A program made the position numbers and the translations under genes. Below are positions 3,945 through 42,852 of a stretch of DNA of 64,000 nt, piece by piece. The notes under the pieces are model-generated. The model saw only the letters and a list, made by a program, of their open reading frames with translations, was not told where the DNA came from and did not search any database. The stretch covers positions 4,324-68,323 of the forward strand of contig MPNC01000017.1 of NCBI GenBank assembly GCA_002238825.1. The letters run 5' to 3'. The first letter of the stretch is position 1, and every line of letters begins with the position of its first letter. The stretch comes from SAR202 cluster bacterium bin87 (GTDB lineage: Bacteria > Chloroflexota > Dehalococcoidia > Lucifugimonadales > UBA3495).

Positions 3945-4642
3945 GGGGACCCGTTCGGCTCCGTGATCTGGTCTCTTCGAGGGTCAATGCGATGTGTCGC
4001 GTCTCCGCGCCGGCCTTCATGCCGGCTCCGGTGGAACACCGCATGGTCGGCGGTCTCGTCATGGTCTGCCAGGATGTGGCGTGGCGTCGCTGATGGTGAG
4101 GCGACAAACCGGATATGACGCTCTGATCCACCTGTCTCCGGGGATGCCGGCGCACCCAGGGCGCCGCCATCGGTCGCCGATAGATGGGTTGGGCAGACGC
4201 TTCGCATCCGCCGTCCCATTCAACCCCACGCTGGCGGAATCCTGGCGACACAACACGGATGGGCGTGAAAAGGACCATGTGACCTCCGCGATGATGAGCA
4301 AGGCTGCGGGCGGAATGGCAGCCAACCGGTTGCATGACCGTACGGCCAGGATGGGGCGAAGTTCGATTGCGGTAATGCAGGTGCACGTCGCCGCCATGCC
4401 GGCCCACGGCGAGCGCCGGCTGCCCATCTTCAACACCGTGGACTTCCGGCCCTACGGAGGCCGCATTGAGCCGGCGGTTTCCTGAGCAGGTCCGGTCACA
4501 TTGCCCATCCGCTCGGGATACAATGTCGCTCCACCGGTCGGAGGTGTCATGAGAATCGAGGCAAGGCGGCGATCCTCAGACGCCGCACCGGCGGAGATGA
4601 ACGCCGGTTGCATCGCCCGAGGTTGATCAGGAAGGTAACCAA

Positions 4643-27629: not shown

Positions 27630-27920
27630 TTATAGACCCCAAGCATCTTTGAGGATGAGGTACTCTTGTTGATAGCCATGCGTCCGCAGATGTTCCAAGT
27701 AAACCTCTCGTGGGGGTATGTTACTGTAGTATGGGACCGAGCCCCTGGAAAGCCCTCCGCCAGTTCCCCTGGAAAGCCCTCCGCCAGTTCCCCTGGAAAG
27801 CCCTCCGCCAGTTCCCCTGGAAAGCCCTCCGCCAGTTCCCCTGGAAAGCCCCCCGCCAGGGCTCTTGTTCAGTCCCCCACCAGTTCCCGTGGAACTATTC
27901 CGTGACCATCCTTTTGACAT
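27630..27920 (-). CDS. small protein with GGGLSRGT tandem repeats
   Basis: 96-aa ORF. It has five 8-residue Gly-rich repeats followed by VPYYSNIPPREVYLEHLRTHGYQQEYLILKDAWGL. Confidence 0.45.
   Translation of the reverse strand: MSKGWSRNSSTGTGGGLNKSPGGGLSRGTGGGLSRGTGGGLSRGTGGGLSRGTGGGLSRGSVPYYSNIPPREVYLEHLRTHGYQQEYLILKDAWGL
27742..27861. repeat. 5 x 24-bp tandem repeat (4 perfect, 1 degenerate)
   Basis: CCCCTGGAAAGCCCTCCGCCAGTT at 27742, 27766, 27790 and 27814, with a degenerate copy at 27838. Confidence 0.9.
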
Positions 27921-28167: not shown

Positions 28168-29703
28168 TCAGACCAAGCGTCCTACCCTGTCGAACGGTAC
28201 CTCGGCAATGCTCCGGTAGATATCGACCACTTCGTCATTGAATTCAAACCGATTGGCGAGCGTGTCCACAACCACTTGGACTATCAGGGACGCGCATCCT
28301 ATCACCGAAGCGGGCGGAGCGTTGTTGACCGGGGCCGAGCACCCCAGTGCGGGCGTCGCGAAGTCGTTACGTCCATCACCTCCGGGGATAACAGGATATT
28401 TGGCGCCTTCCTCCCTGAGGTGGATCGGAGTATCCCCTGCCAACACTTGACGCTGCACCCGTGCCACACTGCCCCCACGGTAAAGCGCACCGGATACCAG
28501 TGGCTTTCTCCATTTCTCGGCGACCATGGCCAACGCAGGTACGAATGCATCGTTGCCAGTAGCGTCGATCACGATATCCGCGCTCGAGATGAGTTCACAT
28601 ATCCTACCGGGAGTCATCGGAGCTTCCGGAAACTCGCCAACCTCGGTCCAGGGAGCGTGCTTTTCAATCACGTGATGGACAGCTTGCACCTTGGGCTTGC
28701 CCACCTGGTCATGGCCCGCGACGTGTCTGACCACGTTCTCGGGTAAAAGTACGTCGCCGTCCACGATGTCCAAGTGGCCGAGCCCGCTTTCCGCGAGCGT
28801 GGTCCCAACGTAACCTCCCAGAGCGCCGGCCCCGAACATAGTTGCCCTGATGGTCCGCAGCACCGGCGCGTCAGGGCCCGCGCGCGCGATCAGGTTGTTT
28901 TCATCGGTTGGTCCTGGCTGCAATGCGATCGCCTCCACATCATTATTCATTCCTGCACACGCCATCACCAGCGCGTCTTTCGCTTCGTACCGCTCCCAAC
29001 AGAATAGGATGAAATCCACTCCGCCGCTGGATACGAACGGTTCAGGCCTACGCCGGTCGTCCAATTGGCGCCTTAGCGGTTTGGCTTGGGCCCGGGATAG
29101 GCACCGGAACACTTCCGAAAGCTGACGGGGCGGCGGGGTGGTCAATCGGCTCGGGTGGAACCAGAGGCCGCGCAGATGATTCGACGACCTGGCGCGCCCC
29201 GGACCCACATCGATCCTTGGTGGAGCCCGGTTCACAACACCATGCAGATCTCCCCAACCGCCTCTGTGGATGCCGAGCTCATCACGGTCGAAGGTTACAA
29301 CGATGGGCAGTTTCCTCTGAAAGTTCAGGAAAGCGTCATATCCCAAGTCATCGCCTTCCCAGCCATGCTCTGCACTCTCGCACCATTCCTCAATACGCGA
29401 GAAAAATCCCTCTGCAGTCTCCCAATCGCGGCTGGAATCTCCGTCCTGCCACATACAGACAAACCCACCAAGCGTGGAGTGGTTGGTGTCAAGGCCATCG
29501 ACGAACAGGGCCGGAGGCCGAAATGGCCATCCTTCCACGATCATGATATCCATGGTCGTTGCCGCGGTCAGGGGCGCAAACGCCTCATGGATCGGGCCGC
29601 GCCAGCGCGATTGATTCACAGCCGATACCGGAGCGAAGCCGGCCGCCTTCAGATCGCACTCGAACGCTTCTAACGACTCCATGTGGAAATGGTCGTCCGT
29701 CAT
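28168..29703 (-). CDS. cap2: CBASS Cap2-like E2/E1 fusion protein
   Basis: 511-aa ORF. The N-terminal E2-like region has HSTLGGFVCMWQDGD. The C-terminal ThiF/E1 adenylation domain has MFGAGALGGYVGTTLAESGLGHLDIVDGDVLLPENVVRH. Its start is 5 nt after the CD-NTase stop. Confidence 0.8.
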   Translation of the reverse strand: MTDDHFHMESLEAFECDLKAAGFAPVSAVNQSRWRGPIHEAFAPLTAATTMDIMIVEGWPFRPPALFVDGLDTNHSTLGGFVCMWQDGDSSRDWETAEGFFSRIEEWCESAEHGWEGDDLGYDAFLNFQRKLPIVVTFDRDELGIHRGGWGDLHGVVNRAPPRIDVGPGRARSSNHLRGLWFHPSRLTTPPPRQLSEVFRCLSRAQAKPLRRQLDDRRRPEPFVSSGGVDFILFCWERYEAKDALVMACAGMNNDVEAIALQPGPTDENNLIARAGPDAPVLRTIRATMFGAGALGGYVGTTLAESGLGHLDIVDGDVLLPENVVRHVAGHDQVGKPKVQAVHHVIEKHAPWTEVGEFPEAPMTPGRICELISSADIVIDATGNDAFVPALAMVAEKWRKPLVSGALYRGGSVARVQRQVLAGDTPIHLREEGAKYPVIPGGDGRNDFATPALGCSAPVNNAPPASVIGCASLIVQVVVDTLANRFEFNDEVVDIYRSIAEVPFDRVGRLV

Positions 29704-29708
29704 GGCGC

Positions 29709-30743
29709 TTATCCGAACCTGCGCGCCTCATTCGGCCGCTGGGCTACCGGTGTGGAACCAGCACCAGCTGCGGCGGTGCGGGCGCTACGCCCCGAGCCTT
29801 GGCCAGCACGGTTTCCGCTCCCGACCGCGTTGGATCCTCCACCACCAGAACTCCCGCCTTTGCCGAAGCTATCGCCGAACAGTTCCTGCCAGATCTTGAT
29901 GGCCTTCTCAGCCGAAGGCTCAGCTTTCGCTCGCTTCGCGGTTCCCGCGTAAGACTGGACTCGGTTCCTGAAGTTGGCGTATTTACGCTGGTCCCAGTGC
30001 CGGTTGAAGTTCTCCGTCGGCAGCACCGGATTCTTGATCTCCGGCATATTGGGGTGCTGCTGCAGGTAGTTGTCCATCCGGGACAGGACGGTCTCCAGCG
30101 TGTCGGCCACCGTGCTCACCGCCGCGGTTCCTTTATCGGACGCCTTGATAGTGTTGCCGGCCAGGGTGGTCAGGAGAATCGACTTGGCGGTAAAGCTGTT
30201 CTTGTGGTCCCGAAGGTGCTTGAGCAACCTGACCACTCGCTTCAGATTGCCACCGGTGATGCGATTCTTTTCGTTGAACCAGTCGCGGTATCCGGTACCG
30301 TCAGTTTCTTCGAATTTGTTGTCAACCCGGTTGCAGACGTAGTGCTTACCACCGCTGGTCACCCGGGGTACTGTGTCGAGGTGAAAATCGCCGGCGTAGT
30401 CGACGGTCACGCACCTGGTCTTGAGCCTGAGCTTGTCGACGTAGTTCTTGTTACCAGCCAGCGTCTTGTTAATCGCGTGGACGTAGTCTTTGGCTTCCCA
30501 CTTGGGGTTCGGGTTCATCACGATCTGGATGTCGGCATCATACTCATCGTTGTCGTCCACCGGCTTGATGAGTGTACCCAGGGCATAGGACCCCTGCTTG
30601 TCCATTGTTTGGTACCCAGGCAGGTTGTCCTTGAGATAGTCGTTCACCGCGCCCACGGATGTTTCCAGTCGGTCCAGCCGGCTCTGATTTAGGTTCACCT
30701 CATCCCTGAGAAACTCGGCGAACTGCTGAATATTCTTGGTCAA
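29709..30743 (-). CDS. CD-NTase (SMODS-type cGAS/DncV-like nucleotidyltransferase) with a long Gly-terminated tail
   Basis: 344-aa ORF with a TTG start after AAGGAG. It has QGSYALGTLIKP...EYDADIQIV and DFHLDTVPR (GS / DxD / third-Asp pattern). About 50 residues of G/S/A-rich tail end in ...EARRFG*. Confidence 0.8.
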   Translation of the reverse strand: MTKNIQQFAEFLRDEVNLNQSRLDRLETSVGAVNDYLKDNLPGYQTMDKQGSYALGTLIKPVDDNDEYDADIQIVMNPNPKWEAKDYVHAINKTLAGNKNYVDKLRLKTRCVTVDYAGDFHLDTVPRVTSGGKHYVCNRVDNKFEETDGTGYRDWFNEKNRITGGNLKRVVRLLKHLRDHKNSFTAKSILLTTLAGNTIKASDKGTAAVSTVADTLETVLSRMDNYLQQHPNMPEIKNPVLPTENFNRHWDQRKYANFRNRVQSYAGTAKRAKAEPSAEKAIKIWQELFGDSFGKGGSSGGGGSNAVGSGNRAGQGSGRSARTAAAGAGSTPVAQRPNEARRFG

Positions 30744-30761
30744 TGTCCTTACTCCTTACAG

Positions 30762-31793
30762 TTATGCCAACGCCGTGAATGGCGCCGAAATGTGAGTTAA
30801 AAACGCCGCCGAAATCCGGTCGGCGTACTGCTCCGCGACGGCGCATGCTTCATCCGGCAGCAACCGTCTGGCCTTCTCCCAATCGTCCAGATCGACGCGC
30901 TCGGCTCCTTCCAGTCGATCCAGACGCGTAACCTTGTCGCGACCGATCAGCAGCCCAGCCTGATTGACCGCGGTGAGGGACTGGTAGTGCATGGCCACGT
31001 AGATGATCTCACGCCATTGAAACTGCCCGGCTCCGGCCGCCTGCTTGCTGCCAATCCGAAAACCGTCCTGTCCGCACCCGATGCTCAGGATCGCGATGTT
31101 CTCCCGTTGTACCGTGAAGCAGGTCAGAGCTTCGACCAAACCCATCATGGTCGGATTGTTAGCCCAGATGCCCCCGTCCAGGAGGATGTACCCATCTTGA
31201 ACCACCGGCTTCAGGTAGGTAGGAGCTGCCGAAGTCGCGGCCGCCACCTCGGCCATGGGCTTGTCGCCGTCCAGGAAATACCCGGGATGGTGGGGAGTCT
31301 TATACACCGCGGGGTCTCCATGCTTGGCCTCGGTCGCCGGTATCAGCAACCGATATCTGGATTCCCGAAGGGTTATCTCCCCCAGAGTCTCACGAAGCAG
31401 TTCATCCAGGGCGGCCCGATCGTATCGATTGCGCGACAACCGACTCAGTAATCGCTGACCGCTCGCACGTTGCTCCGGAGGAAACACACGGTGGCCCTCG
31501 TTGACGTACAGATCCAGCAGAGAGCGCGCCGTCAGTCCAGCGCCCAACCCCAGGGCTATGATCCCACCGGTCGAGGTGCCGGCAATCAGGTCGAAGTAGT
31601 CGCCGATTGGCTGACCGTCAAGGCAGTTCTCCTCCAGATAGGCCAGGATCGCCACCGGGAAAATGCCCTTGATGCCGCCGCCATCAATCGACAGGATCCT
31701 GAATGTGGCGTCGTCGGGCCAAGGCAATGGTTCCCGACGGGTCTGCAGGATCGTAGCCGACCTGCGTGCTGGTTTATCGCGCTCTGCATTCAT
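30762..31793 (-). CDS. capV: patatin-like phospholipase effector
   Basis: 343-aa ORF with ILSIDGGGIKG, the nucleophile motif AGTSTGG, and DGGIWANNP. Confidence 0.85.
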   Translation of the reverse strand: MNAERDKPARRSATILQTRREPLPWPDDATFRILSIDGGGIKGIFPVAILAYLEENCLDGQPIGDYFDLIAGTSTGGIIALGLGAGLTARSLLDLYVNEGHRVFPPEQRASGQRLLSRLSRNRYDRAALDELLRETLGEITLRESRYRLLIPATEAKHGDPAVYKTPHHPGYFLDGDKPMAEVAAATSAAPTYLKPVVQDGYILLDGGIWANNPTMMGLVEALTCFTVQRENIAILSIGCGQDGFRIGSKQAAGAGQFQWREIIYVAMHYQSLTAVNQAGLLIGRDKVTRLDRLEGAERVDLDDWEKARRLLPDEACAVAEQYADRISAAFLTHISAPFTALA

Positions 31794-31817
31794 GACATAA
31801 AAACCGAAATCAGCGGA

Positions 31818-31833
31818 TACGCTAATCAGCGTA
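31818..31833. promoter_or_regulatory. 16-bp palindrome in the capP-capV intergenic spacer, candidate operator
   Basis: TACGCT-aatc-AGCGTA lies within the 67-nt gap upstream of capV. Confidence 0.3.
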
Positions 31834-31860
31834 GCACAGCCCGCAAAAAATGCAAGCCAC

Positions 31861-32598
31861 TTACTTCAATCCCAGCGACCGTTCCTCAGGCCTGTCCGTC
31901 AGGTATCCCAACTGCGCCAGCCTCACCCTCGCCGCATCATTCGAGACTTCAAACTGGCCCGCTATCCTGGCGATGAGATCTGCCCCTTTGACAGACGCGG
32001 TTGGAACTGACCCAAAAGTACCCCATGCGTCAAAGGTCATCTGGACCAACCGTCCGAGTCGCGTGACCGGCATCAGGATGGCTCCCGATACGTACCCGGC
32101 CTGCCACTCCATCCAATCGACGCCGGATCCCCCGCTGTCTCCCGGCCTTTTACACCTGGGCCCGGGCGCTTCCTCCTCATCCGGGAAAAGCCTGGGCTGA
32201 TCGAATGGCCACAACCTCGCGTGCAACTTCACGTGGCCGAACTCGTGGGTGAGGGTCGTCCGCAACCGGTGTTCCCGGTGGCTTGCATCGGCCAGCTCCT
32301 GGGAGATTTTCACCACGGGTTTCTGGTCAGGATAAAACAGGGTCAGCCCCTGTACCTCCTCACCCTCCTCGCCTTCCTCACTGAGGTCGGCGTACTGGTC
32401 CAAGTCGGACGTATCACATTCGATCATGACGGTCAGGTCCTGAGTCGACACCGGGAACTCAGCCTTCCCGTACGTCTCCAGCAGGAAGCCAACGATCCAT
32501 TCCTCGCTCAGGCTATCCAGCTCCTCCTGACGATAATAAGGCCGCTCCGGAAAGCGGCCCGTCCGATCTTTGATCCATCTGATCGAGTTAGCGCTCAT
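31861..32598 (-). CDS. capP: ImmA/IrrE-family Zn metallopeptidase (CapP-like)
   Basis: 245-aa ORF with the HExxH motif (LTHEFGHVKLH). Its ATG overlaps the stop of the HTH gene (ATGA). Confidence 0.75.
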   Translation of the reverse strand: MSANSIRWIKDRTGRFPERPYYRQEELDSLSEEWIVGFLLETYGKAEFPVSTQDLTVMIECDTSDLDQYADLSEEGEEGEEVQGLTLFYPDQKPVVKISQELADASHREHRLRTTLTHEFGHVKLHARLWPFDQPRLFPDEEEAPGPRCKRPGDSGGSGVDWMEWQAGYVSGAILMPVTRLGRLVQMTFDAWGTFGSVPTASVKGADLIARIAGQFEVSNDAARVRLAQLGYLTDRPEERSLGLK

Positions 32599-32912
32599 CG
32601 GCTCCGGCCACTCAGGTTGCGCCGGAAGGCCTTCATGGCAGTTGTGATGCCTTCCCGGTCACGCGACATCTCGAGCATATCCGAGGGGAACCTCCCCGCC
32701 AGAAAGAGCAGATAGTCCAAGTCCAAGTCCAAGGTATCCGCCAACTGGCGAACGATATGTTCGCTGGGAGGATTGCGCCGGTCATGCTCAATATCGTTCA
32801 GATATTGAGCCGAGATGGCCTGGCCGTCCTCCTTCAAGGTTTCGGCCGCTACCTGCTTCTGGCTCAGTTTTCTGTCCTTGCGGGCCTGTGTGATTGCTTC
32901 TCCGAATGTCAT
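32595..32912 (-). CDS. capH: XRE-family HTH regulator (CapH-like)
   Basis: 105-aa ORF with LSQKQVAAETLKEDGQAISAQYLNDIEHDRRNPP. It is paired with the metallopeptidase directly upstream of CBASS. Confidence 0.75.
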   Translation of the reverse strand: MTFGEAITQARKDRKLSQKQVAAETLKEDGQAISAQYLNDIEHDRRNPPSEHIVRQLADTLDLDLDYLLFLAGRFPSDMLEMSRDREGITTAMKAFRRNLSGRSR

Positions 32913-33209
32913 AACGCCCGCTCCTCAATGCTGGTTCCACCACACCGCACCCCCGCAGTGGGACACTGGCAACCGTGATCTACATAGAGCGTAACACCTG
33001 CCCGGAGGGCGGTGTGCAACCTCCCAACACAACCGGTCAGTGGCATTCGAGACCTCTCCTGCCCGTCGATGTATTGCTACTGAACACGACGAGCGCCTCA
33101 CCATCACGATTGCCGCCAAGAATACCAACGGGGTGGATTCACGTAAAGACCGATCCCGCCCGCCAGCCCTGTCATCCCAACCAACTACAGCGCCGGTATC
33201 GCACGCGGA

Positions 33210-36170
33210 TTATCGGGAGCTGTCCCCGAACAGTTCCTGCCAGAGTTTGACGGCCTCCTCAGCCGAGGGCTTGGCTTTCGCCTGCTGCGCCGTCTGTGCG
33301 TACGATTGGATCCGGTCCCTGAAATTGGCGTACCTCCGCTGGTCCCAGTACCGGTTGAAGTTCTCCGTAGGCAGCACCGGATTCTTGATCTCCGGCAAAT
33401 TGGGATGCTGTTGCAGGTAATCGTTCATCCGGGAGAGGACGGTCTCCAGCGTGTCGGCCACCGTGCTCACCGCCGCGGTTCCTTTATCAGACTCCCGAAT
33501 CATGTTGCCGGAGAGAGTCGTCAACATGATCGACTTGGCGGTGAAACTGCTCTTGTGGTCCCGGAGGTATTTGAGCAGTCTGACCACTCGCTTCAGGTTG
33601 CCGCCTGTGATGAGATCCTTTTCATTGAACCAGTCGCGGTACCTATTACCGTCCGTCTCCTCGAACTTGTTGTCGATCCGGTTGCAGACGTAATGCTTAC
33701 CTTCGATGGTCACCCGAGGAACCACATCCAGGTGAAAGTCGCCGGCGTAAGCGACCGTTACGCACCTGGTCTTGAGCCGGAGCTTATCGGCATACGTCTT
33801 GTTGCCAGCCAAGGTACGGTTGATCGCGAGGACATAGTCCTTCGGTTCCCACTTAGGATGCAGGTCCATCACGATTTGGATATCGGCATCATACTCATCG
33901 CCGCCGTCCACCGGCTTGATGAGCGTATCCAGGGCGTAAGAGCCCTGCCTCTCCATCTTCTGGTATCCGGTCAGGTTGTCTTTAAGGTAGCCGTTCACCG
34001 CTCCCACGGCAGTTCCCAATCGGTCCAGACGGCTCTGGTTGAGATTCACTTCGTTCTGCAGTTTCCTGGACGTCAACTCGGCACTACTAGTTGCCTCCCT
34101 CAACAGCATATCGAAGCTGATCCCAGCCAAATCGCGCCGAACATCTTTCGCAACCGCATGCACTTCCTTGGCGACGTGCGTCTCCTGGCCTTGCTCTTGC
34201 TGCAGAGCGGTAATCAAGGGCAGCAGCAAACCTGCCGCCGGTGATGCCTGTATGAGTTCCAGAGCGCGGGCCACACCGAATATCACAGACAATTGTGTCA
34301 ATGCCTGGATGAAACCCGGGCGGAGTTCGCCCTCTTTGGCCAAACAGCCCAGCAACAAAGAGAAATCGTTCTCAGTAAGGTTTTTCCCTTGGAGGAGGAG
34401 GGCAGCCGCCTTGGACAACAGTGCGCTGGTCACTTTCCCAACCATGCTCTTCGCATTATCAGAGGCGAACCTCTCCACGACTGCGTCAAAAACGACCGCC
34501 GCTTCGCTTGGGTTTTGGTTCTGCATCAGAGCCAACCCCTTACGATGCATCGTGTCAGCTACCAGTTCGCTGAGTTCAGTGGTTGGCACGGTGGCCAAAC
34601 AGTCCAAAGCTTGGTCATACGCGTAAACAGCTTCAGATGCATTCCCGAGTTGAGACCACGCCCTTCCTTTGCTATCCAACGCTGTTCCGAGCATGACGAC
34701 CACCGCAGGGTCTCTGCTCGTTCCAAAGGTGACCAGCATTTGGTCGCACGCGCCGATGCCCTCAAGATACCGGCCCGCCCAGTTCAACCGCAGGACCTTG
34801 TTCAACAAAGCCACAGCCGCCTGGTGCCGATCACCTGTCACCTGGGACATCCGCAACCTATCTGCAACCTGCTCAAAGATGGCGACGGCTTCATTATCAT
34901 GACCAATATCGGCCAAGAGTTGCGCTTTTTGGATCAACACCTGGGCTACCGGCTCTTGAACGTCAGCCGTTTCAAGGCGGGATTCCCGGTAGATGTCCGC
35001 GACAATATCCCACAGATCTGCCGGTGAATAGAGGCAAGCCATGAAGTCTATAAGCGCTTCAACCACCTGACTGGACCCGCTGTCCCTTCGCAACAGATAG
35101 TAGATGTTGTAAAGCCGCTCGCTCAGGTAGTACTGCCGGCGCCGAGGCGTTCCCCCGACGACGACTACAGCCCCCCGTTCCATTAAGCGCGCCAACAAGG
35201 CGCTGCACTTGTTGATATCGAGACGAGACTGATCGGCAACCTCTCTGGCGGTAGCAGGTTTCCATAACCTGGCCAAGGAGAGATAAACCCGGCGCTCCAG
35301 TGCCGGCAACGATTCCAGGTGGCTCTTGAAATACTCCGTGTGGTCGTCAACCAGGTCCAGCAGATTGCTTTTTAGTTCACCGAACGACCGGCCGACGCCA
35401 AAAAGAGCGATGATAGTAAGCAATCTGGGATTGCCTCCGGTGAGGATCTCCAGGGGCCTGACCGCCAGGGTTGTGGACGGTTGTCCGCTGACAGCCTCCC
35501 ACAGGGCCACGCATTCTGGTGTATCCAGGGGATGTAGTGTGATTACCCGAAACAGATCGTATAGCGCATGATCGGGATGGTCGATTTCGTCGAACCGGCT
35601 GGTGGCGCTGCCCAGCAGGACAATGCGAGGCTCCGTCTGCAGGGTGTGGCGCAACCGCCATCCCGCGTCAGGATCATCCATGTCGGCGAACAGCATATTC
35701 AGGTTTTCCACCACCAACACGACCCGTTTCCCGTGGCGGTCCGCGAAATCCAGAACCGACCCCAGGCAGCGGTCGGCCAGGTCCCGGTCATTCCCGGTGG
35801 TCCTGAGGTCATCATAGGACAGGCGCAAATCGGCGCGCTCGTCGTCCGGAGCCTGCTCCACCAAACGGCCCACGCACTCCAACCAGAATTCCCCAATGGT
35901 GGAGATCTCGTAACTCTCCTCCGCGAACACGATGGGGTAGAATCCCTCCAGCGCGCCATCCCGGCGCGCCTCAGCCGCCACGCGTAGCAGCAAGTGGGTT
36001 TTTCCGCTGCCTCGCGGTCCGATCACCAATGCGTGGGCGTTGGATTGGCCGGTACTCGCGCGCAGGCATTCCAAGAGCGACTCGAACTCGCCGGTGCGCA
36101 CGCAGAACGACGCTACGATCTCATCGTCGGTGAGGAAGCCAGGGTTGTATTTCTTGACGCCGACTGCCAT
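33210..36170 (-). CDS. fusion protein: STAND/ORC-like P-loop ATPase + wHTH + TPR-like repeats + C-terminal CD-NTase (SMODS) domain
   Basis: The ORF is open to 36242. The likely start MAVGVKKYNPGF at 36170 is preceded by GGGGGA. It has Walker A VIGPRGSGKTHLLL and Walker B-like RVVLVVENLN. The last 280 aa are colinear with, and very similar to, the 29709-30743 CD-NTase (QGSYALDT...EYDADIQIV...DFHLDVVPR). Confidence 0.8.
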   Translation of the reverse strand: MAVGVKKYNPGFLTDDEIVASFCVRTGEFESLLECLRASTGQSNAHALVIGPRGSGKTHLLLRVAAEARRDGALEGFYPIVFAEESYEISTIGEFWLECVGRLVEQAPDDERADLRLSYDDLRTTGNDRDLADRCLGSVLDFADRHGKRVVLVVENLNMLFADMDDPDAGWRLRHTLQTEPRIVLLGSATSRFDEIDHPDHALYDLFRVITLHPLDTPECVALWEAVSGQPSTTLAVRPLEILTGGNPRLLTIIALFGVGRSFGELKSNLLDLVDDHTEYFKSHLESLPALERRVYLSLARLWKPATAREVADQSRLDINKCSALLARLMERGAVVVVGGTPRRRQYYLSERLYNIYYLLRRDSGSSQVVEALIDFMACLYSPADLWDIVADIYRESRLETADVQEPVAQVLIQKAQLLADIGHDNEAVAIFEQVADRLRMSQVTGDRHQAAVALLNKVLRLNWAGRYLEGIGACDQMLVTFGTSRDPAVVVMLGTALDSKGRAWSQLGNASEAVYAYDQALDCLATVPTTELSELVADTMHRKGLALMQNQNPSEAAVVFDAVVERFASDNAKSMVGKVTSALLSKAAALLLQGKNLTENDFSLLLGCLAKEGELRPGFIQALTQLSVIFGVARALELIQASPAAGLLLPLITALQQEQGQETHVAKEVHAVAKDVRRDLAGISFDMLLREATSSAELTSRKLQNEVNLNQSRLDRLGTAVGAVNGYLKDNLTGYQKMERQGSYALDTLIKPVDGGDEYDADIQIVMDLHPKWEPKDYVLAINRTLAGNKTYADKLRLKTRCVTVAYAGDFHLDVVPRVTIEGKHYVCNRIDNKFEETDGNRYRDWFNEKDLITGGNLKRVVRLLKYLRDHKSSFTAKSIMLTTLSGNMIRESDKGTAAVSTVADTLETVLSRMNDYLQQHPNLPEIKNPVLPTENFNRYWDQRRYANFRDRIQSYAQTAQQAKAKPSAEEAVKLWQELFGDSSR

Positions 36171-36190
36171 TGCGGTCCCCCATTCCTGAT

Positions 36191-37471
36191 CTATCGCCGG
36201 TTGATCGGGGTGAAGTATTGACCGTGCCGGGCGCGCCACCAATCCTCCAGCAGGCCGGACACGAAGCCGTAACCTCCGTCCTGGCCCTCCAGGTACCCGT
36301 CATGCTCCAGCGAATAAAGCACATGCTCGACGGGCACTCCTTCGTCATCTGAAGAGAGCGGCGACGACTCCCGGTAGCGCCGCGCGGTTTCGTGAGTCAG
36401 CAGACCGCCGTTGACCGCGGCTTCAGTCAAAAGGCCGAGAGCCACCGTATAGCTCTGGCCCCCCAGGACAGTTCGCAGACGGTCCTCGTAATGCACCAGG
36501 TCAACCTGTCCCCGCACGCTGAGCAGTTCGTGTTCGTACACCTGCGCCACGTCGGCCATGGTCGCCTCGCTCCTCTGATCCCTGACCAGGCGTTCGTGGA
36601 GGTGATGGAAAAACTGCTGGACGTGATGCGGAACGCAACAGCGCAACCGGCGACACATCTCGCCGCGCACCTCTTCGGAGAGATGTATCCCCTGCCCACG
36701 GGCCAATGCAGCCAGGCAGTCAATCGATATCTCCCGACTCCAAGGCTGCAAGTCGAAGGGCGCAAAAACGTTGGCCTGAGCGCTGAGGCCTGCCTGCCTG
36801 AGAATGGGGCCCAACCCGACGCTCCCTGAGATGATCAAGCAGACCCTGCCGGGATACGCCTGGCAATTTCGCCTCAGCCAGCTCATGAACCGGTCCGTGG
36901 CTGCGCGGCGCTCCGGAGTGATGCGGTAATCATGCCCCTTCAGCAGACGGTTTACTAGGATGGAAAGCTCGTCAATGGCCAGCACCACCGGCCGTTCGTT
37001 GGCTGCCAGAGCTTCAAAGAACCGGTCGCCATCACGCTGCCAGTTTCCGGCGTCCATTCCGGCGCGTAACCGCACCTTCAGCTCGGATACTCCCACCTCC
37101 TCCACATTGTCGCGGATGTCCCCCAGGCGGTTGGTGGACCACGTCTGGATACGCCTCCAGATGCTCTGGACCGATTGAGCCTGGATCGCCATCTCGGCGA
37201 CGGCATCAGCCCCGTCCATGGCGGCTTCCAGGTCCACGAACACGGTGGCAAACTGCCCCTCGTCATCCAATCGCCGCAGCAGTTCCCGCACCAGGCTGGT
37301 CTTGCCCATGCGACGCTGCGCGGTCAGGAGCGTGTGCGTGCCGTTTTCCACACGCTCCCGCAGCGCTTCGATCTCGGCCTCTCGATCAAAGAAACGGTCG
37401 CCGTAGACCCAGTTACTGCCGCCTGGGACGAGTTCCAGTTCGCCATCCGGTTGGGTAAAGTTGCTTGCCAT
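36191..37471 (-). CDS. archaeal-ATPase/ORC-like P-loop ATPase
   Basis: Internal start MASNFTQPDG at 37471. It has FFDREAEIEALRERV...AQRRMGKTSLVRELL (Walker A) and VVLAIDELSIL (Walker B). It ends 20 nt before the fusion gene start. Confidence 0.7.
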   Translation of the reverse strand: MASNFTQPDGELELVPGGSNWVYGDRFFDREAEIEALRERVENGTHTLLTAQRRMGKTSLVRELLRRLDDEGQFATVFVDLEAAMDGADAVAEMAIQAQSVQSIWRRIQTWSTNRLGDIRDNVEEVGVSELKVRLRAGMDAGNWQRDGDRFFEALAANERPVVLAIDELSILVNRLLKGHDYRITPERRAATDRFMSWLRRNCQAYPGRVCLIISGSVGLGPILRQAGLSAQANVFAPFDLQPWSREISIDCLAALARGQGIHLSEEVRGEMCRRLRCCVPHHVQQFFHHLHERLVRDQRSEATMADVAQVYEHELLSVRGQVDLVHYEDRLRTVLGGQSYTVALGLLTEAAVNGGLLTHETARRYRESSPLSSDDEGVPVEHVLYSLEHDGYLEGQDGGYGFVSGLLEDWWRARHGQYFTPINRR

Positions 37472-37533
37472 TGATAGATCGTAACACGCAACATATACGT
37501 TGGCAACAAACACGTTGGCAACAGCACCGGTTG

Positions 37534-37890
37534 TTTGCCGAACTGCGGCTGGCCGGCGCAACCACCCTGGAGCGGGCTCGGGCGGTGCTCGATGAGTTTG
37601 TGCCTCGGTTCAACCGGCGCTTCGGCGTTCCCCCGCAGCGCTCCGAGCCAGCGTTCCGACCGCTGGACCAGCAGTTGTGCCTAGAGCAGGTGCTGTGTTT
37701 CCAGCACCGCCGGAAGGTGGACCGGGACAACACGGTGCGGTTCCAGTTGCAGACACTCCAACTGCTGCCGGCGCCGGAACGCCCCAGCTATGCCGGGGCG
37801 ACGGCGGAAGTCCTGGAGGGGCTGGATGCTCAGCTCAAGGTACGCCACGCGGGACGCATCGTCGCTGCCCAGGAGGCCCCGCCAGGTCCG
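37534..37890 (+). pseudogene. C-terminal fragment of a DDE transposase (IS481/ISNCY-like)
   Basis: AELRLAGATTLERARAVLDEFVPRFNRRFGVPP...RKVDRDNTVRFQLQTLQL...AEVLEGLDAQLKVRHAGRIV. There is no catalytic N-terminal part. A separate HTH-like scrap (RERWKAIQQARRKGMSLRAIE) follows at about 38090-38160. Confidence 0.5.
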
Positions 37891-38604: not shown

Positions 38605-41600
38605 TTATTCCACACCCTCTTCGGAGGCCATCGTCAGCCAAAATTCGATATGAGGTTCGGTGAAAAACAAGCTTACGTGGGAATCCAGTTGGGGAGGTTT
38701 GACATTGACCAATCTGCCCGGCACGTCCCGAACTTTCCCGTCCGTCGATGCGAAAGCTATGATCCGGTCCGTCATATCGACAAACGAACGGAGAATCTCT
38801 GACCGAGTGATTGCGTCGCCAAAGTGCATATGATGATATCGGCATAGCAAAAGAATATTGCCCGCGTGGCGCGCGCCCCTTGCGTTTACGTGGTCGCAGT
38901 GATGGGCATGCATTACCTCCTGCCGATTTTGTGGTATCGACACGTAGCTCGATCCCGGGGCCAGCACCGAGGGCGCCCACGTGGCCAGGCAAATTTGGCA
39001 ATGCCAAGCGTACTGCACCTCCTTTAAGTTGGCTATTTGGGCATCTTCGGTCGGTATCCGGCTCCGACTAGGGGTTGCCGGCGGCCTGATCCTAGTCTTG
39101 CTGTTCGCACCAGAACCCCCAGGGATCGGTCCGGGACTAGGGATGTTTTTTGATCCGTCAATGATTTGAGCGGGGTGCACACCAGCGGTCTCGACGAGAT
39201 CTCCGTCGTCGTGCGCATGGTCAGAGGCTTCGTACGCTTCGTAATCGGTTTCCGACGCTGACTCGTCCACGCCGTAGTTGGGGTTGCGCTCCTTGAAGTC
39301 CAGTTTGTACGCGCGCTGCAGCACCGGGCCCAGATACTTTTGCGGCGTCTCGAAAATACGCTCGGCGACTAGGTCGAAGAAATTCTCTTCCAGATCCGAG
39401 TCTGACCTCAGATAAAGTGTTCCGTTTTCTGGGTCGATTTGGCCGCTTTCTTCTACCTCAAAGTTTCGACGGAATAGCCGGTAGGTGACAAAGACCGAGT
39501 CCGCGAGTTGGACCTTCTTGACGACCGACAAGCGTTCGCGCCAATTTCTCCTTAGTTTGTCCCGCCGGTCGTCCAGTCCCAGGTTATCCAGCCGCTTCCT
39601 TAATTGCTGCCCTTTCGCACCAGTTTGCAAAGACAAGATCACTCGACCAAATGCGTGATTTGGATCGTGGGCATCGAGGCCATCGGCCACCACCCGGGTC
39701 GGCTCTCCCGCTGCGTCCCTCAGCGTACGCAATCCCAGGGCACGCAATTCAGAAGTGATTGGTTCTGTGACTTTCTGACTTTCCACTATGGCGAGGCCAA
39801 CCGGTCGGTCGCTTGCATACAGCCTGATGCGTTTCTCAAGAGGCTCATGATCAGGGATCGCGATTCGAGCTCGGTTTTGGGTCGCTTCCGATTTCGTGAC
39901 CAGGCGCACCAGGTTCGTGTCGCATTCCACAGGGATAAAGGCAATCTCGGGGTTGCCGGCGGACCACGACCTAGGTCCATTCCCGTGTTTAATGTGGCGA
40001 AGGATTTGGTCGACGTGTTCGGCGATCACGTCCGAACTCTGGCATTGAAGCCAATGGAAGAAACGAAGAGAGTCGGTTTCCGTCGGCTCTCCGCCCACGA
40101 CGCCAATCTTTCGATAAAGTCGTTGAGTCTCAGCGTTGATGTCCGATAATTTGACCACCGTTTTCCACAGGCCCCAATAATCCCTTCTACCCTTCAAAGC
40201 CAACTGGGATGGTGAGAACAATTCACCCTCTACTGGTATGCACGGTAAATTCTGTATACCGGTCGGTGCCGTGCCTTCGCTTTCCGATTGCTTTACGTAT
40301 TCTCGGATTCTCGGAGCGTAAGAGTCGATGCGACCGCCGTCCTCCCGCAACGCATCAGCGATTTGCGTGGCCGTTGGGGTCTCTCTGGGCGCCCAGCCTT
40401 CGACGCGATCCAAAAGCTTTTTTGGACGGTTAATTTTGTGCCTTTCGAGGAGGTACAATCGAGACACCCAGCCTTCGGATCTCAACAATTCTGCCGGCGA
40501 TCTCAGCATCAGGTCTCCGCCTAATGCAACTGCGTACCGAGCGGCTAATTTGGCAAGGCTATCCTTCAATTCAGATACCGACGCGAGGGCCGCAAGGTCA
40601 TCTTCGAACGACAAGAACTGGTGCACTTCATCGGAAGTGAGTTGGCGATCTTTCGGGAACTCAACGGCCCGGTTCGACAAAAAGGCTCTGACTTCATGGA
40701 TGTTGGGAATGCGGCGGACGCTGAACTTGCCTCTCCCGTTCCTGGTTGCCATATCCGCAGTATAAATTTCTCGAGACGGCCTATTGATGTGCGCGCGCAA
40801 AATCGAGGAGACGCGGGAGTCCTTTGGTTCGCATAACGCCGGGAACGCAACCAAATCACCCGTTGTGGTCGGCCAGATAGGCAAGGTTAAGATGCGGTAG
40901 CGGACCGGGGAGGAGAGGGATGCCCAACTGCCGCGCAACCAACGCCAAAACTGCTTGCGGTAGTTCAATGAGGTTTCGTGAAAATCAGTTTCATCAAGAA
41001 AATCATCCAGGGTGTATTGTCGCGGCTTCCACCCACGGCTTTGCAGCAACGGATGATTCTGCAGTGAGGGGTGCAATATCGGTACTTGACGACGGCCCGG
41101 TAGGGAAGGCGGCAAAACCGTCGCAATGAACAAATCGGCGAGGGGTCGCGGCTCTGACTTGGCATCAGGCAGATGCAAATTAGGTTTGATGGAACTTGCA
41201 TTCCGCGATTTATCGTTTTGAATAGTTTCTTTCAAGACGTCCAAATTCCGCTTGGCAACCTCGGGATCCCCGAGGGTTTTTTTCCATTCGGCTTCGCTCG
41301 CCCATGGGAACCACCTTGCGGTTTGCAGCGGTTGCATGCGTTGTACGGCATCATTCTCATCGAAAGTAAAGATCAAGCCATCCGAATCAATGTCGGCTAA
41401 ACAGCGCAACACGGGTGCAGGAATCGACTCACTCACTTGGTCTTCGTTCTTTGGACAAATATTGGAGAGGAGGCCGGAAAACTCCGAATCGCTCCACGTA
41501 AAAGTTGGCAGGATTATCCTCCTGCTGCCGCCCGCAGAAACCCGTCTAGGACCCAAGGGAACCATCGGTCCCGATTTGGCTCGGCGTCGGACCTTCGGCG

Positions 41601-42852
41601 ATGATATTTTGGTACCGGCATTCTGGGTTTGGCCGCGGAGCGGGATAGCCCGCTTGTTCAGGGACCGCCGAACGATGTCTGGTAACCATTCGCTGTCTGG
41701 ATTGCCGTTGACCAAGTACAGTTCCAGGGCCTTGCCGCCGTGGCGTGGGATTAGATATCCCGCCATGATGTCCACCAAGGAGTCGCGACAGGATTCGTCG
41801 ATGCATGAATTGAACCGGTCCCGGTCGCTGATTCCATGCCTTCCCGCATCCGACCTGTACGGTCCCGAGAAGTGGACGCCCAGTCCAGTGAGCGCTGTCG
41901 CGAAACCTTCGTCGTACCCTATAGGATATCGCCTCAGGCCCTTGGTCGATTGAGGCCGCCCTTTCTTGTCGATGCTCCAAGCGATTTCGATGCGAAAGTC
42001 TTTGACGCCTGGATCGAAAAAACCGGGGATCTCCGGACGCGTCCCGTCCAGGAAAAGAGCCCGCAGCGTACATACATGTTCGTGAACTGATCTGGACTCG
42101 GTGGTCGGCGAATGGGACTCTACTTCACATTCTCGCCGAAACAAGCTAAAGCTTTTTCTGTTCCTCCCAGTCCGATGGGTAGGTCGTTTTGCAGTCCAAC
42201 CGATGTCCACCACGCCCAGTTGGTGATGTCTCAAGGTCAGGCGGTATTGGTTCCTGACACCTGGGGAGACCGCTCCCATCAACCTCTCCGGAAGACCAGC
42301 GCACGCGTCGCGATAGAGGCCGCGCACCAAATCTGGGCTCGTCGGCCCAAGTTCGAACGTTTCTCCCATGGTGACCATCAATGTGTTTGAGCGGTATGGC
42401 ACTTCCACTGAACATCCAAAGAGCGGCGCTTCTAAATCTGGCACGGGCGCGCCATAGGCGCCGGGCGAAGGTTCGGCATCTTTGCCGTTGCGGTACAAAG
42501 TTTTTTGTAAACGGACGCCATCGGAACGGATTATGATGTCGTCGCCTAGGCCGAAGCATGCGTTCAGACCATGATTTTTCACCCCGATGCCCGACCTTTT
42601 CGCTTCGACGTCTTCCCCAGCACCAAATAAGGTAGCCAGCCGTTCCCAACCCTTTTCCGAGACGGGCTCTCCGTCGCCTTGACAAATCAGTCGATCAGGA
42701 AGAAACGAAATGCTGGTATGGCTAGCGTTGGCGTCCAACTCATTCTGGATCAGCTCAATGATCAGGTCGTCGAGATTGAGGCCTCTGAAAAACTGCCAAT
42801 AAACAGGGATAACATCGACCTTCTGCTCGTATTCGACGGTTGACATGGTCAC
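38605..42852 (-). CDS. giant GHKL (sacsin/HSP90-like) ATPase protein with a C-terminal HNH-like nuclease motif
   Basis: 1415-aa ORF with visibly lower GC. The N-terminus has LIIELIQNELDANASH (Bergerat N-box), QGDGEPV, and SGIGVKNHGLNACFGLGD. The C-terminus has WHCQICL...MHAHHCDHV...AGNILLLCRYHHMHFG. Confidence 0.75.
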   Translation of the reverse strand: MTMSTVEYEQKVDVIPVYWQFFRGLNLDDLIIELIQNELDANASHTSISFLPDRLICQGDGEPVSEKGWERLATLFGAGEDVEAKRSGIGVKNHGLNACFGLGDDIIIRSDGVRLQKTLYRNGKDAEPSPGAYGAPVPDLEAPLFGCSVEVPYRSNTLMVTMGETFELGPTSPDLVRGLYRDACAGLPERLMGAVSPGVRNQYRLTLRHHQLGVVDIGWTAKRPTHRTGRNRKSFSLFRRECEVESHSPTTESRSVHEHVCTLRALFLDGTRPEIPGFFDPGVKDFRIEIAWSIDKKGRPQSTKGLRRYPIGYDEGFATALTGLGVHFSGPYRSDAGRHGISDRDRFNSCIDESCRDSLVDIMAGYLIPRHGGKALELYLVNGNPDSEWLPDIVRRSLNKRAIPLRGQTQNAGTKISSPKVRRRAKSGPMVPLGPRRVSAGGSRRIILPTFTWSDSEFSGLLSNICPKNEDQVSESIPAPVLRCLADIDSDGLIFTFDENDAVQRMQPLQTARWFPWASEAEWKKTLGDPEVAKRNLDVLKETIQNDKSRNASSIKPNLHLPDAKSEPRPLADLFIATVLPPSLPGRRQVPILHPSLQNHPLLQSRGWKPRQYTLDDFLDETDFHETSLNYRKQFWRWLRGSWASLSSPVRYRILTLPIWPTTTGDLVAFPALCEPKDSRVSSILRAHINRPSREIYTADMATRNGRGKFSVRRIPNIHEVRAFLSNRAVEFPKDRQLTSDEVHQFLSFEDDLAALASVSELKDSLAKLAARYAVALGGDLMLRSPAELLRSEGWVSRLYLLERHKINRPKKLLDRVEGWAPRETPTATQIADALREDGGRIDSYAPRIREYVKQSESEGTAPTGIQNLPCIPVEGELFSPSQLALKGRRDYWGLWKTVVKLSDINAETQRLYRKIGVVGGEPTETDSLRFFHWLQCQSSDVIAEHVDQILRHIKHGNGPRSWSAGNPEIAFIPVECDTNLVRLVTKSEATQNRARIAIPDHEPLEKRIRLYASDRPVGLAIVESQKVTEPITSELRALGLRTLRDAAGEPTRVVADGLDAHDPNHAFGRVILSLQTGAKGQQLRKRLDNLGLDDRRDKLRRNWRERLSVVKKVQLADSVFVTYRLFRRNFEVEESGQIDPENGTLYLRSDSDLEENFFDLVAERIFETPQKYLGPVLQRAYKLDFKERNPNYGVDESASETDYEAYEASDHAHDDGDLVETAGVHPAQIIDGSKNIPSPGPIPGGSGANSKTRIRPPATPSRSRIPTEDAQIANLKEVQYAWHCQICLATWAPSVLAPGSSYVSIPQNRQEVMHAHHCDHVNARGARHAGNILLLCRYHHMHFGDAITRSEILRSFVDMTDRIIAFASTDGKVRDVPGRLVNVKPPQLDSHVSLFFTEPHIEFWLTMASEEGVE

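Follow-up and report, generated by a model that had tools for sequence, protein, structure and literature searches.

The 64,000-nucleotide (nt) stretch analysed here, referred to as the window, comes from contig MPNC01000017.1 (forward-strand positions 4,324 to 68,323, assembly GCA_002238825.1) of SAR202 cluster bacterium bin87, a member of the Dehalococcoidia. It contains a cyclic oligonucleotide-based antiphage signalling system (CBASS) locus of seven genes, all on the minus strand, in the order ATPase, fusion, capH, capP, capV, tailed cyclase and cap2. Two of these genes encode a cGAS/DncV-like nucleotidyltransferase (CD-NTase) domain, one as a free enzyme next to the E1-E2 protein Cap2 and the other as the C-terminal part of a protein that begins with an ATPase, a winged helix-turn-helix (wHTH) and tetratricopeptide repeats (TPRs). 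The duplication relating the two domains is real but old, and the pairing is conserved in related loci.

Two cyclase domains in one locus

The free CD-NTase (29709..30743, minus strand, 344 aa) matches Pfam SMODS (3e-29) and a PADLOC cyclase profile (1.8e-113), and its closest solved structures are the CD-NTase 9sa4 and CdnG 8hsb. Its last 52 residues (293-344, encoded at 29712..29867 on the same strand) form a G/S/A-rich tail ending RPNEARRFG, the presumed Cap2 substrate end, which resembles the end of E. cloacae CdnD. Cap2 (28168..29703, minus strand, 511 aa) is an E1-E2 fusion recognised over its full length by PADLOC PDLC00847 (3.5e-165) and by Pfam ThiF; its gene begins 6 nt past the cyclase stop, placing E1-E2 beside the CD-NTase as in type II CBASS. 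The fusion (33210..36170, minus strand, 986 aa) consists of a P-loop ATPase, a TrmB-like winged helix, a TPR array and a CD-NTase, with Pfam matches to AAA_16 (3e-11), TrmB (3e-6), several TPR families and SMODS (1e-24) and a PADLOC match to cyclase PDLC00793 (3e-101). It probably starts at Met25 of the listed 1010-aa open reading frame (position 36170), in agreement with the 986 aa of its homologues. Both repeated blocks are CD-NTase (SMODS) domains assigned to the same PADLOC cyclase families.

The two domains align by BLASTP without gaps, with 231 of 281 residues identical (82%) and 92% positives (E=9e-173). The alignment pairs residues 12-292 of the free enzyme with residues 728-1008 of the long reading frame (33210-36242), corresponding to 704-984 in the 986-aa protein. 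The DNA of the two blocks also keeps register, at an offset of 3351 nt, and is 82.2% identical across 843 nt. Measured in 30-nt windows, identity ranges over 67-97% within 29870-30709 and drops in the flanks on both sides to a background of about 17-47%; this sharp loss at both edges sets the limits of the repeat at 29868-30710 for the copy in the free enzyme and 33219-34061 for the copy in the fusion. These values essentially match the colinear blocks at 29868-30701 and 33216-34052 proposed in the original prediction, whose estimate by eye of about four residues in five alike is borne out rather than replaced by a much lower identity. Since both copies lie on the minus strand, the repeats are direct and not inverted.

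The copies part at their C-termini, as had been noted from the sequence: the free copy runs on into the G/S/A-rich tail, put at about 50 residues, and the fused copy stops at GDSSR. The stop codon of the fused copy, TAA, aligns exactly with AAA (Lys), the first tail codon of the free copy. Matches by tblastn and genome search run on beyond the TAA, as would be expected of a fossil tail; in local alignment to the free tail, the frame following this stop scores no better than composition-shuffled tails (306 of 5000 as good, p~0.06). The other difference that had been singled out, GSYALGT in the free copy and GSYALDT in the fused one, exists but is without meaning. The site is Gly56 of the free copy, and 16 of the 85 fused copies and 16 of the 123 free ones have Asp there, a polymorphism common to both kinds.

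Three genes separate the two cyclase genes. CapV (30762..31793, minus strand, 343 aa) is a patatin phospholipase (Pfam Patatin 3.8e-30; PADLOC phospholipase effector 6e-105) that scores 251 bits against the NCBIfam profile CBASS_lipase (cut-off 200), as befits a type II CBASS effector with predicted activation by a nucleotide. It is the sole effector that Pfam, PADLOC and NCBIfam recognise within the locus. The capH-like gene (32595..32912, minus strand, 105 aa) encodes a helix-turn-helix (HTH) regulator (Pfam HTH_19 and HTH_3; PADLOC capH 7.5e-7), and the capP-like gene (31861..32598, minus strand, 245 aa) an M78/IrrE metallopeptidase with an HEFGH motif (Pfam Peptidase_M78 7.6e-4; PADLOC capP 1.1e-8). 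The two genes overlap by 4 nt beside the CBASS genes, the arrangement of a capH/capP pair, with modest scores. At the upstream end of the locus lies the partner P-loop ATPase (36191..37471, minus strand; Pfam ATPase_2 and AAA_16), 426 aa by homology with a listed reading frame that extends to 37561. The longest reading frames overstate both ATPase genes (36171-36242 and 37472-37561 are surplus), homologues placing the starts at 36170 and 37471; with these corrected starts the apparent overlap of the two genes disappears. A sigma-70-like site (37506-37478) lies just upstream of the corrected start at 37471, and a scan for promoters and terminators gave matches not above shuffled expectation. 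No Cap3/JAB protein, a component of type II systems, is matched by Pfam or PADLOC among the proteins of the locus. The only Prok-JAB match of the genome is on another contig (C28) with no CBASS gene nearby, and none is seen in the gene calls of related loci.

Age and concerted evolution of the cyclase pair

The duplication had been predicted to be recent, a claim that the divergence between the two copies contradicts. Nei-Gojobori estimates give 0.78 synonymous substitutions per site (dS) and 0.094 nonsynonymous substitutions per site (dN), with dN/dS of 0.12. Third codon positions account for 90 of the 150 nucleotide differences and differ at 90 of 281 sites, so that the near-identity at synonymous sites expected of a recent segmental duplication is absent. 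No identical run exceeds 53 nt, and the second longest is 28 nt. Homologues of the free copy elsewhere reach 97-98% identity in the core, closer than its own partner in the window, and P0001, the closest homologue of the fusion, has 93% identity to it overall and 88% within the core. This combination of synonymous divergence and closer relatives elsewhere indicates that both copies are old and that both have been held under purifying selection.

The fusion itself is widely conserved. Counted as clusters at 90% identity, the ATPase-wHTH-TPR-SMODS architecture is found in more than 80 clusters, 76 of them with proteins of at least 960 aa, at 62-93% identity to the window protein; homologues of 982-1026 aa have the same architecture. 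All loci that carry an organism name are from metagenome-assembled genomes of Dehalococcoidia. A sample of 300 other genomes from across the class contained no full fusion, which is thus confined to a narrow set of lineages. Neighbourhoods can be judged in 15 loci with enough flanking sequence, and in ten of them (the window, L001, L002, L005, L006, L007, L009, L015, L087 and L095) both cyclase copies lie beside CBASS genes. Eight of these ten keep the seven-gene order of the window, including L002, though its fusion is only 62% identical to that of the window. L001 has an inverted CBASS block and a free copy interrupted by an insertion sequence (IS); in L015 the CapV-like gene is divergent and neither capH nor capP is matched.

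The similarity between the two copies of a locus varies greatly from one lineage to another. Within-locus nucleotide identity is 69% in L015 (dS 3.5), 79% in L002 (1.02), 82% in the window (0.78), 83% in L005 (0.64), 86% in both L095 (0.62) and L006 (0.58), 90% in L007 (0.32), 94% in L009 (0.21) and 98.8% in L087 (0.04), with dN/dS of 0.06-0.18 for the pairs of all nine loci. In a maximum likelihood tree the two copies of L009 are sisters (support 100/99), as are those of L087 (100/95), and weaker grouping is seen for the L006 and L007 pairs. The approximately unbiased (AU) test rejects the union of all fused copies in one clade (p=1.7e-48). The phylogeny called for in the original prediction places both window copies among their homologues and neither supports nor rejects their being sisters (AU p=0.19). 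In a tree of 209 sequences the label fused or free changes eight times on the best tree and at least three times by force of the starred branches, and no alignment column is fixed differently between the two kinds of copy. The range of 69-98.8% together with the rejection of a single fused origin indicates repeated gene conversion, which re-homogenises the copies at different times in different lineages; sister pairs within one genome (L009, L087) and divergence that varies by lineage are the marks of concerted evolution. The similarity of two copies thus measures the time since their last conversion and not the age of the duplication.

The same process appears to have left traces in the window. 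Compared with L095, the closest relative, dS is 0.12 over the first 702 codons of the fusion and 0.42 in its cyclase domain, where the differing sites form a mosaic of agreement with the free copy of each locus. A 50-codon window moved over the synonymous differences between the two window copies picks out residues 196-252 of the free enzyme (29988..30158, minus strand; 33339-33509 in the fused partner), with 6 synonymous differences in 50 same-residue codons where 16 are expected (permutation p=0.007). This stretch contains the longest identical run (30085-30137). The longest run of identical third codon positions, used as a second test of conversion, is not significant (p=0.098). The stretch, about 170 nt long, is probably a conversion tract of later date than the rest, most of the domain having last been reset long ago.

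Divergence has not cost either window copy its active site. Aligned to the SMODS profile and to the solved CD-NTase 9sa4, both contain the G51-S52, D69-x-D71 and D123 residues (free numbering) of a Pol-beta-type site; the loss of catalytic residues that the original prediction named as the sign of a dead domain is seen in neither. Across the family all 123 free copies have the full Asp triad, as do 79 of 85 fused ones, with D123 present in 80 of the 85. Comparisons between orthologues average a dN/dS of 0.125 among fused and 0.115 among free copies, and the value for the fused cyclase domain of the window against that of L095, 0.157, is not above the rest of the locus. Both copies keep their catalytic residues and evolve under purifying selection.

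Loss and exchange of locus parts

The two repeats were also predicted to be a substrate for deletion or inversion of capH-capP-capV. Direct repeats mediate no inversion, and that part of the prediction falls away; products of the deletion are found in three related loci. Crossing-over between the direct repeats should yield a tailed fusion followed by cap2, with the intervening genes lost. In L085 the fusion (P0017, 1024 aa) ends in RRPNEARRFG and cap2 starts 6 nt later, in L086 (P0034, 1006 aa) the same end is again followed by cap2 after 6 nt, and in L010 a tailed fusion of 1028 aa precedes a truncated cap2. All three loci have the order ATPase, tailed fusion, cap2 and lack capH, capP and capV. 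To judge from these arrangements, relatives of the window have repeatedly lost capH-capP-capV by unequal crossing-over between the direct repeats. In the tree the cyclase domains of the three loci fall at three separate positions, with free copies and pairs of recent conversion as neighbours, which suggests that deletion follows homogenisation. The efficiency of homologous recombination depends on sequence identity, and at 82% the repeats of the window are now poor substrates. The inversion of the CBASS block in L001, which lies next to a gene for a resolvase, is an event of another kind.

Larger parts of the locus also appear to move independently of each other. Between the window and L095 dS is 0.10-0.24 for the partner ATPase, the N-terminal part of the fusion, capH and capP, in contrast to 0.65-1.07 for capV, the free cyclase and cap2. 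This contrast between the two halves implies that the modules are exchanged separately, and the CBASS core appears to have been swapped between these otherwise close loci. A capV-cdn-cap2 core without the ATPase module occurs in L096, its cyclase being 95% identical to that of the window.

The other half is a two-gene ATPase module. Over the N-terminal 700 residues of the fusion, Pfam matches to AAA_16, ATPase_2 and an ORC-CDC6-like family are followed by a TrmB-type winged helix and then by TPRs, and the alignment of the fusion family shows no variation in Walker A (GPRGSGKT) or in the Glu of Walker B. A profile search of PDB sequences with the fusion matched the cyclase domain and gave no match for the ATPase/TPR part. 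A partner ATPase of 413-426 aa precedes the ATPase-TPR gene in nearly all of about 90 loci checked, which belong to Chloroflexota, Acidobacteriota, Proteobacteria, Binatia and others. Most ATPase-TPR relatives are about 700 aa long and have no output domain, and the longer ones only add TPRs, which makes the cyclase fusion an addition specific to its lineage, to a module that is itself widespread. The idea of a scaffold with swappable effectors finds no support here, as the longer relatives show extra TPR repeats only and no other enzymatic output domain.

Several further observations concern this module. It often sits among IS elements and defence genes. The partner ATPase of the window is 94.6% identical to that of L089, which is paired with an unfused TPR protein of 711 aa, and only 63-69% identical to the partners in most other fusion loci, suggesting that partner ATPases are exchanged between modules. 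Another contig of the genome (C5:14775-16850) encodes an unfused ATPase-wHTH-TPR paralogue, 59% identical over residues 1-686 in a 760-aa frame, so fused and plain forms occur together in the genome. Downstream of the module, L095 (12117-14248), L089 (11194-14493), L088 and L085 (12873-14288) have a type IIG restriction-modification gene, which follows either the unfused ATPase pair directly or cap2. This gene may be a marker of the ancestral neighbourhood that received the CBASS genes; a general association of the ATPase pair with type IIG enzymes was considered and dropped, as it is seen in few loci only. Both L085 (1-1264) and the window (38605-42852) have a giant SACS/GHKL-type ATPase gene at a distance of a few kb upstream of their ATPase pairs, so the two islands share a wider context.

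Two putative inputs and one effector

The C-termini of the two kinds of copy differ throughout the family. All 117 of 117 free homologues end in Gly after R-P-N-E-A-R-R-F-G, on tails that reach 38-54 residues past a conserved ...FG site, as against 23 of 76 fused homologues with a terminal Gly. The fused ends are highly variable: 21 stop right after ...FG at the tail base, 8 stop at that site but end in Cys, 2 carry a complete tail and are deletion products, and in the remainder the tail is degenerate, with R, I, S or another residue at its end. The extended C-terminus with a final Gly or Ala that is typical of type II systems is present in the free copy of the window and absent from the fused copy, which ends in Arg. 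Cap2-dependent conjugation requires a terminal Gly or Ala and is abolished by a Gly-to-Arg change in E. coli cGAS (Jenson et al. 2023 PMC10097602). The disordered C-terminus of CD-NTases is conserved, and the ...KTGRFA end of E. cloacae CdnD, which closely resembles the RRFG of the free copy, has been crystallised in the E1 site of Cap2 (Ledvina et al. 10.1101/2022.03.31.486616). By analogy with these results there are good grounds to think that the window fused copy (...SSR) would not be a Cap2 substrate, and the C-terminal sequences lend support to the earlier proposal that the two paralogues are regulated differently.

The most probable reading of the locus is that of an old conserved CD-NTase pair, in which a type II-like, Cap3-less CBASS core stands beside an ATPase module with an acquired cyclase, so that two inputs have one CapV output. 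Cap2 would conjugate the conserved RRFG C-terminus of the free enzyme and thereby prime it, and the NTPase/TPR sensor of the fusion would, with the partner ATPase, switch on the fused cyclase. Both cyclases would make one and the same cyclic nucleotide and so activate CapV, the outcome being a CBASS with two independent inputs and a single output. A single effector, cores that can overwrite each other and similar constraint on both copies make one messenger with two inputs the simplest reading, and both copies would then feed the one CapV effector. A more specific version is possible and is put forward with more reserve: a MalT-like ATPase-wHTH-TPR sensor would, together with the partner ATPase, directly drive its attached CD-NTase, the Cap2-primed free paralogue would answer a different cue, both would supply one CapV with an identical cyclic nucleotide, and gene conversion would keep them matched in product and in effector specificity.

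Several points weigh against this reading. The products of the two cyclases, the control of the fused domain by the ATPase/TPR part and the ligand of CapV are all inferred. Loci L003 and L008 have the fusion without CBASS genes nearby, IS elements or unrelated genes lying downstream, and the deletion derivatives L085, L086 and L010 lack any effector in cis, so that the fusion does not need an adjoining CapV to persist. The ATPase module is in general not accompanied by a recognisable effector in the roughly 90 loci. A catalytic Asp is lost in 6 of 85 fused homologues. In the window the fused copy has 15 rare residues (<5%) at columns that are at least 90% conserved among 206 family members, D115A, G151R, R161L and N182S among them, and the free copy has none; such substitutions could alter or weaken the fused domain, whose activity may be changed or reduced. 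The 21 fused homologues that end in ...FG keep a terminal Gly, and Cap2 might act on them. The AlphaFold2 model of the 986-aa fusion, built from a 19-sequence alignment, is poor (mean predicted local distance difference test, pLDDT, 59.9; predicted template modelling score 0.36), only the helical repeats of the TPR region at residues 400-660 being confident (pLDDT ~75-95).

Those rare substitutions, 15 against 0, are also an argument for taking the fused cyclase as a decaying or non-catalytic remnant, perhaps an adaptor or scaffold or a domain nearing loss, with only the free Cap2-primed enzyme signalling. The loss of the terminal Gly, the variable fused C-termini, the missing Asp in 6 of 85 fused as opposed to 0 of 123 free copies and the many ATPase-TPR proteins of about 700 aa that do without a cyclase point the same way. 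This is nevertheless unlikely, given that the GS, DxD and third Asp motifs are all present in the window fused copy, that its dN/dS against L095 and the mean for fused orthologues are both low, and that the reading frame is kept open across more than 76 clusters. It is equally improbable that two independent systems merely lie side by side in a defence island, the fused cyclase signalling elsewhere or to no effector at all. Such a view could draw on the fusion without nearby CBASS genes in L003 and L008, on the core without a fusion in L096 and on the separate exchange of modules between the window and L095. It fits poorly with the presence of the fusion beside CBASS genes in 10 of 15 loci, 8 of them in the order and orientation of the window, with a fused domain that belongs to the cyclase family of the neighbouring free copy and has repeatedly been overwritten by it, and with the lack of any other nucleotide-sensing effector beside the fusion in any locus examined. 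A recent tandem duplication in situ, by which one cyclase copy landed in frame behind an ATPase-TPR gene, would account for gap-free colinear blocks at 82% identity and for a sisterhood of the window copies that is not rejected, but it is highly improbable and is for practical purposes refuted by the synonymous divergence, the shortness of the longest identical run, the closer relatives of each copy in other genomes and the conservation of the fusion family and of the paired locus in relatives whose fusion is down to 62% identical.

Read as a system with two inputs and one output, the locus shares features with several known systems. It resembles type II CBASS (DncV-CapV-Cap2-Cap3 in V. cholerae and E. 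coli, CdnD-Cap4-Cap2-Cap3 in E. cloacae) in its tailed CD-NTase (RRFG in the window, GRFA in CdnD), in a Cap2 directly downstream and in its CapV patatin. It differs in the absence of Cap3/JAB, both from the locus and from the vicinity of every CBASS gene in the genome, in a second CD-NTase that is fused to ATPase-wHTH-TPR and is without a conjugatable end, and in the position of capH and capP between the two cyclase genes. The HTH repressor CapH and the M78 protease CapP reportedly de-repress CBASS on DNA damage. Their likely counterparts in the window, an HTH gene overlapped by an IrrE/M78-like HEFGH peptidase gene, lie directly upstream of the CBASS core as in systems under such control, but the PADLOC matches are weak (E ~1e-7 to 1e-8) and the pair follows the gene of the fused cyclase on its downstream side, in the same orientation. 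The fused copy is probably outside the unit regulated by CapH/CapP. In type III CBASS a HORMA sensor and the AAA+ regulator TRIP13 act on the CD-NTase. Control by a dedicated protein sensor and an ATPase is a conceptual likeness, but the proteins are unrelated, and in the window the sensor is covalently fused to the cyclase and stands beside a Cap2-type branch.

The fusion also resembles the signal transduction ATPases with numerous domains (STAND) that act as sensors in defence, such as Avs and bNACHT proteins. Like them it joins a P-loop NTPase, helical and winged-helix parts, TPRs and an output enzyme, and lies in a defence island; NTPase, repeat sensor and effector are combined in one polypeptide (AAA_16, TrmB, TPR, SMODS). 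No NACHT, NB-ARC or Avs domain is recognised by Pfam, which gives AAA_16, ATPase_2, ORC-CDC6-like and a weak nSTAND_NTPase5 match (9e-4). Unlike in Avs and bNACHT proteins, the output domain is C-terminal, after the TPRs, in a MalT-like order; an obligate partner ATPase is encoded upstream; and the output enzyme is a cyclase for signalling, dependent on an effector that has its own gene and is shared with a complete CBASS. SMODS is among the effector domains fused to bacterial NACHT modules (Kibby et al. bioRxiv 10.1101/2022.07.19.500537), and the fusion of an NTPase to a cyclase is therefore not new in principle. The literature searched on CD-NTase/STAND/TPR fusions, paired CD-NTases, gene conversion in CBASS and Dehalococcoidia CD-NTases does not describe the present arrangement. 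What appears to be new is the combination of a complete Cap2-type CBASS, a sensor-fused paralogous cyclase, concerted evolution of the two and recurrent deletion derivatives.

How CD-NTases sense infection is the main open question about CBASS. A locus that holds the same cyclase domain in two regulatory contexts, a Cap2 tail and an NTPase/TPR sensor, offers a built-in comparison that could show whether a fused STAND-like sensor activates a CD-NTase and whether two branches meet at one effector. If the proposed scheme is true, the locus would be a case in nature of the integration of immune signals and of a STAND-like protein with a second-messenger output. The locus family is also a case of defence-locus remodelling, through concerted evolution, repeated loss of the Cap2 recognition end in fused copies and deletion of effector genes by recombination. 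Repeats within a defence operon can homogenise its parts and can also destroy it, and the similarity of paralogues is a poor guide to the age of their duplication.

Two minor observations concern the surroundings of cap2 and the rest of the genome. Downstream of cap2, at 27630-27920, a 96-codon reading frame encodes GTGGGLSR repeats from perfect 24-nt tandem units; no Pfam, PADLOC or PHROG profile matches it, and a tblastn comparison with the related loci gives no counterpart. The genome has a second Cap2-type CBASS core, with no CapV match nearby, on contig C6 (L094 7976-10563). Its 347-aa CD-NTase is 47% identical to the free copy of the window and is directly followed by a 512-aa Cap2 that is 71% identical to the Cap2 of the window.

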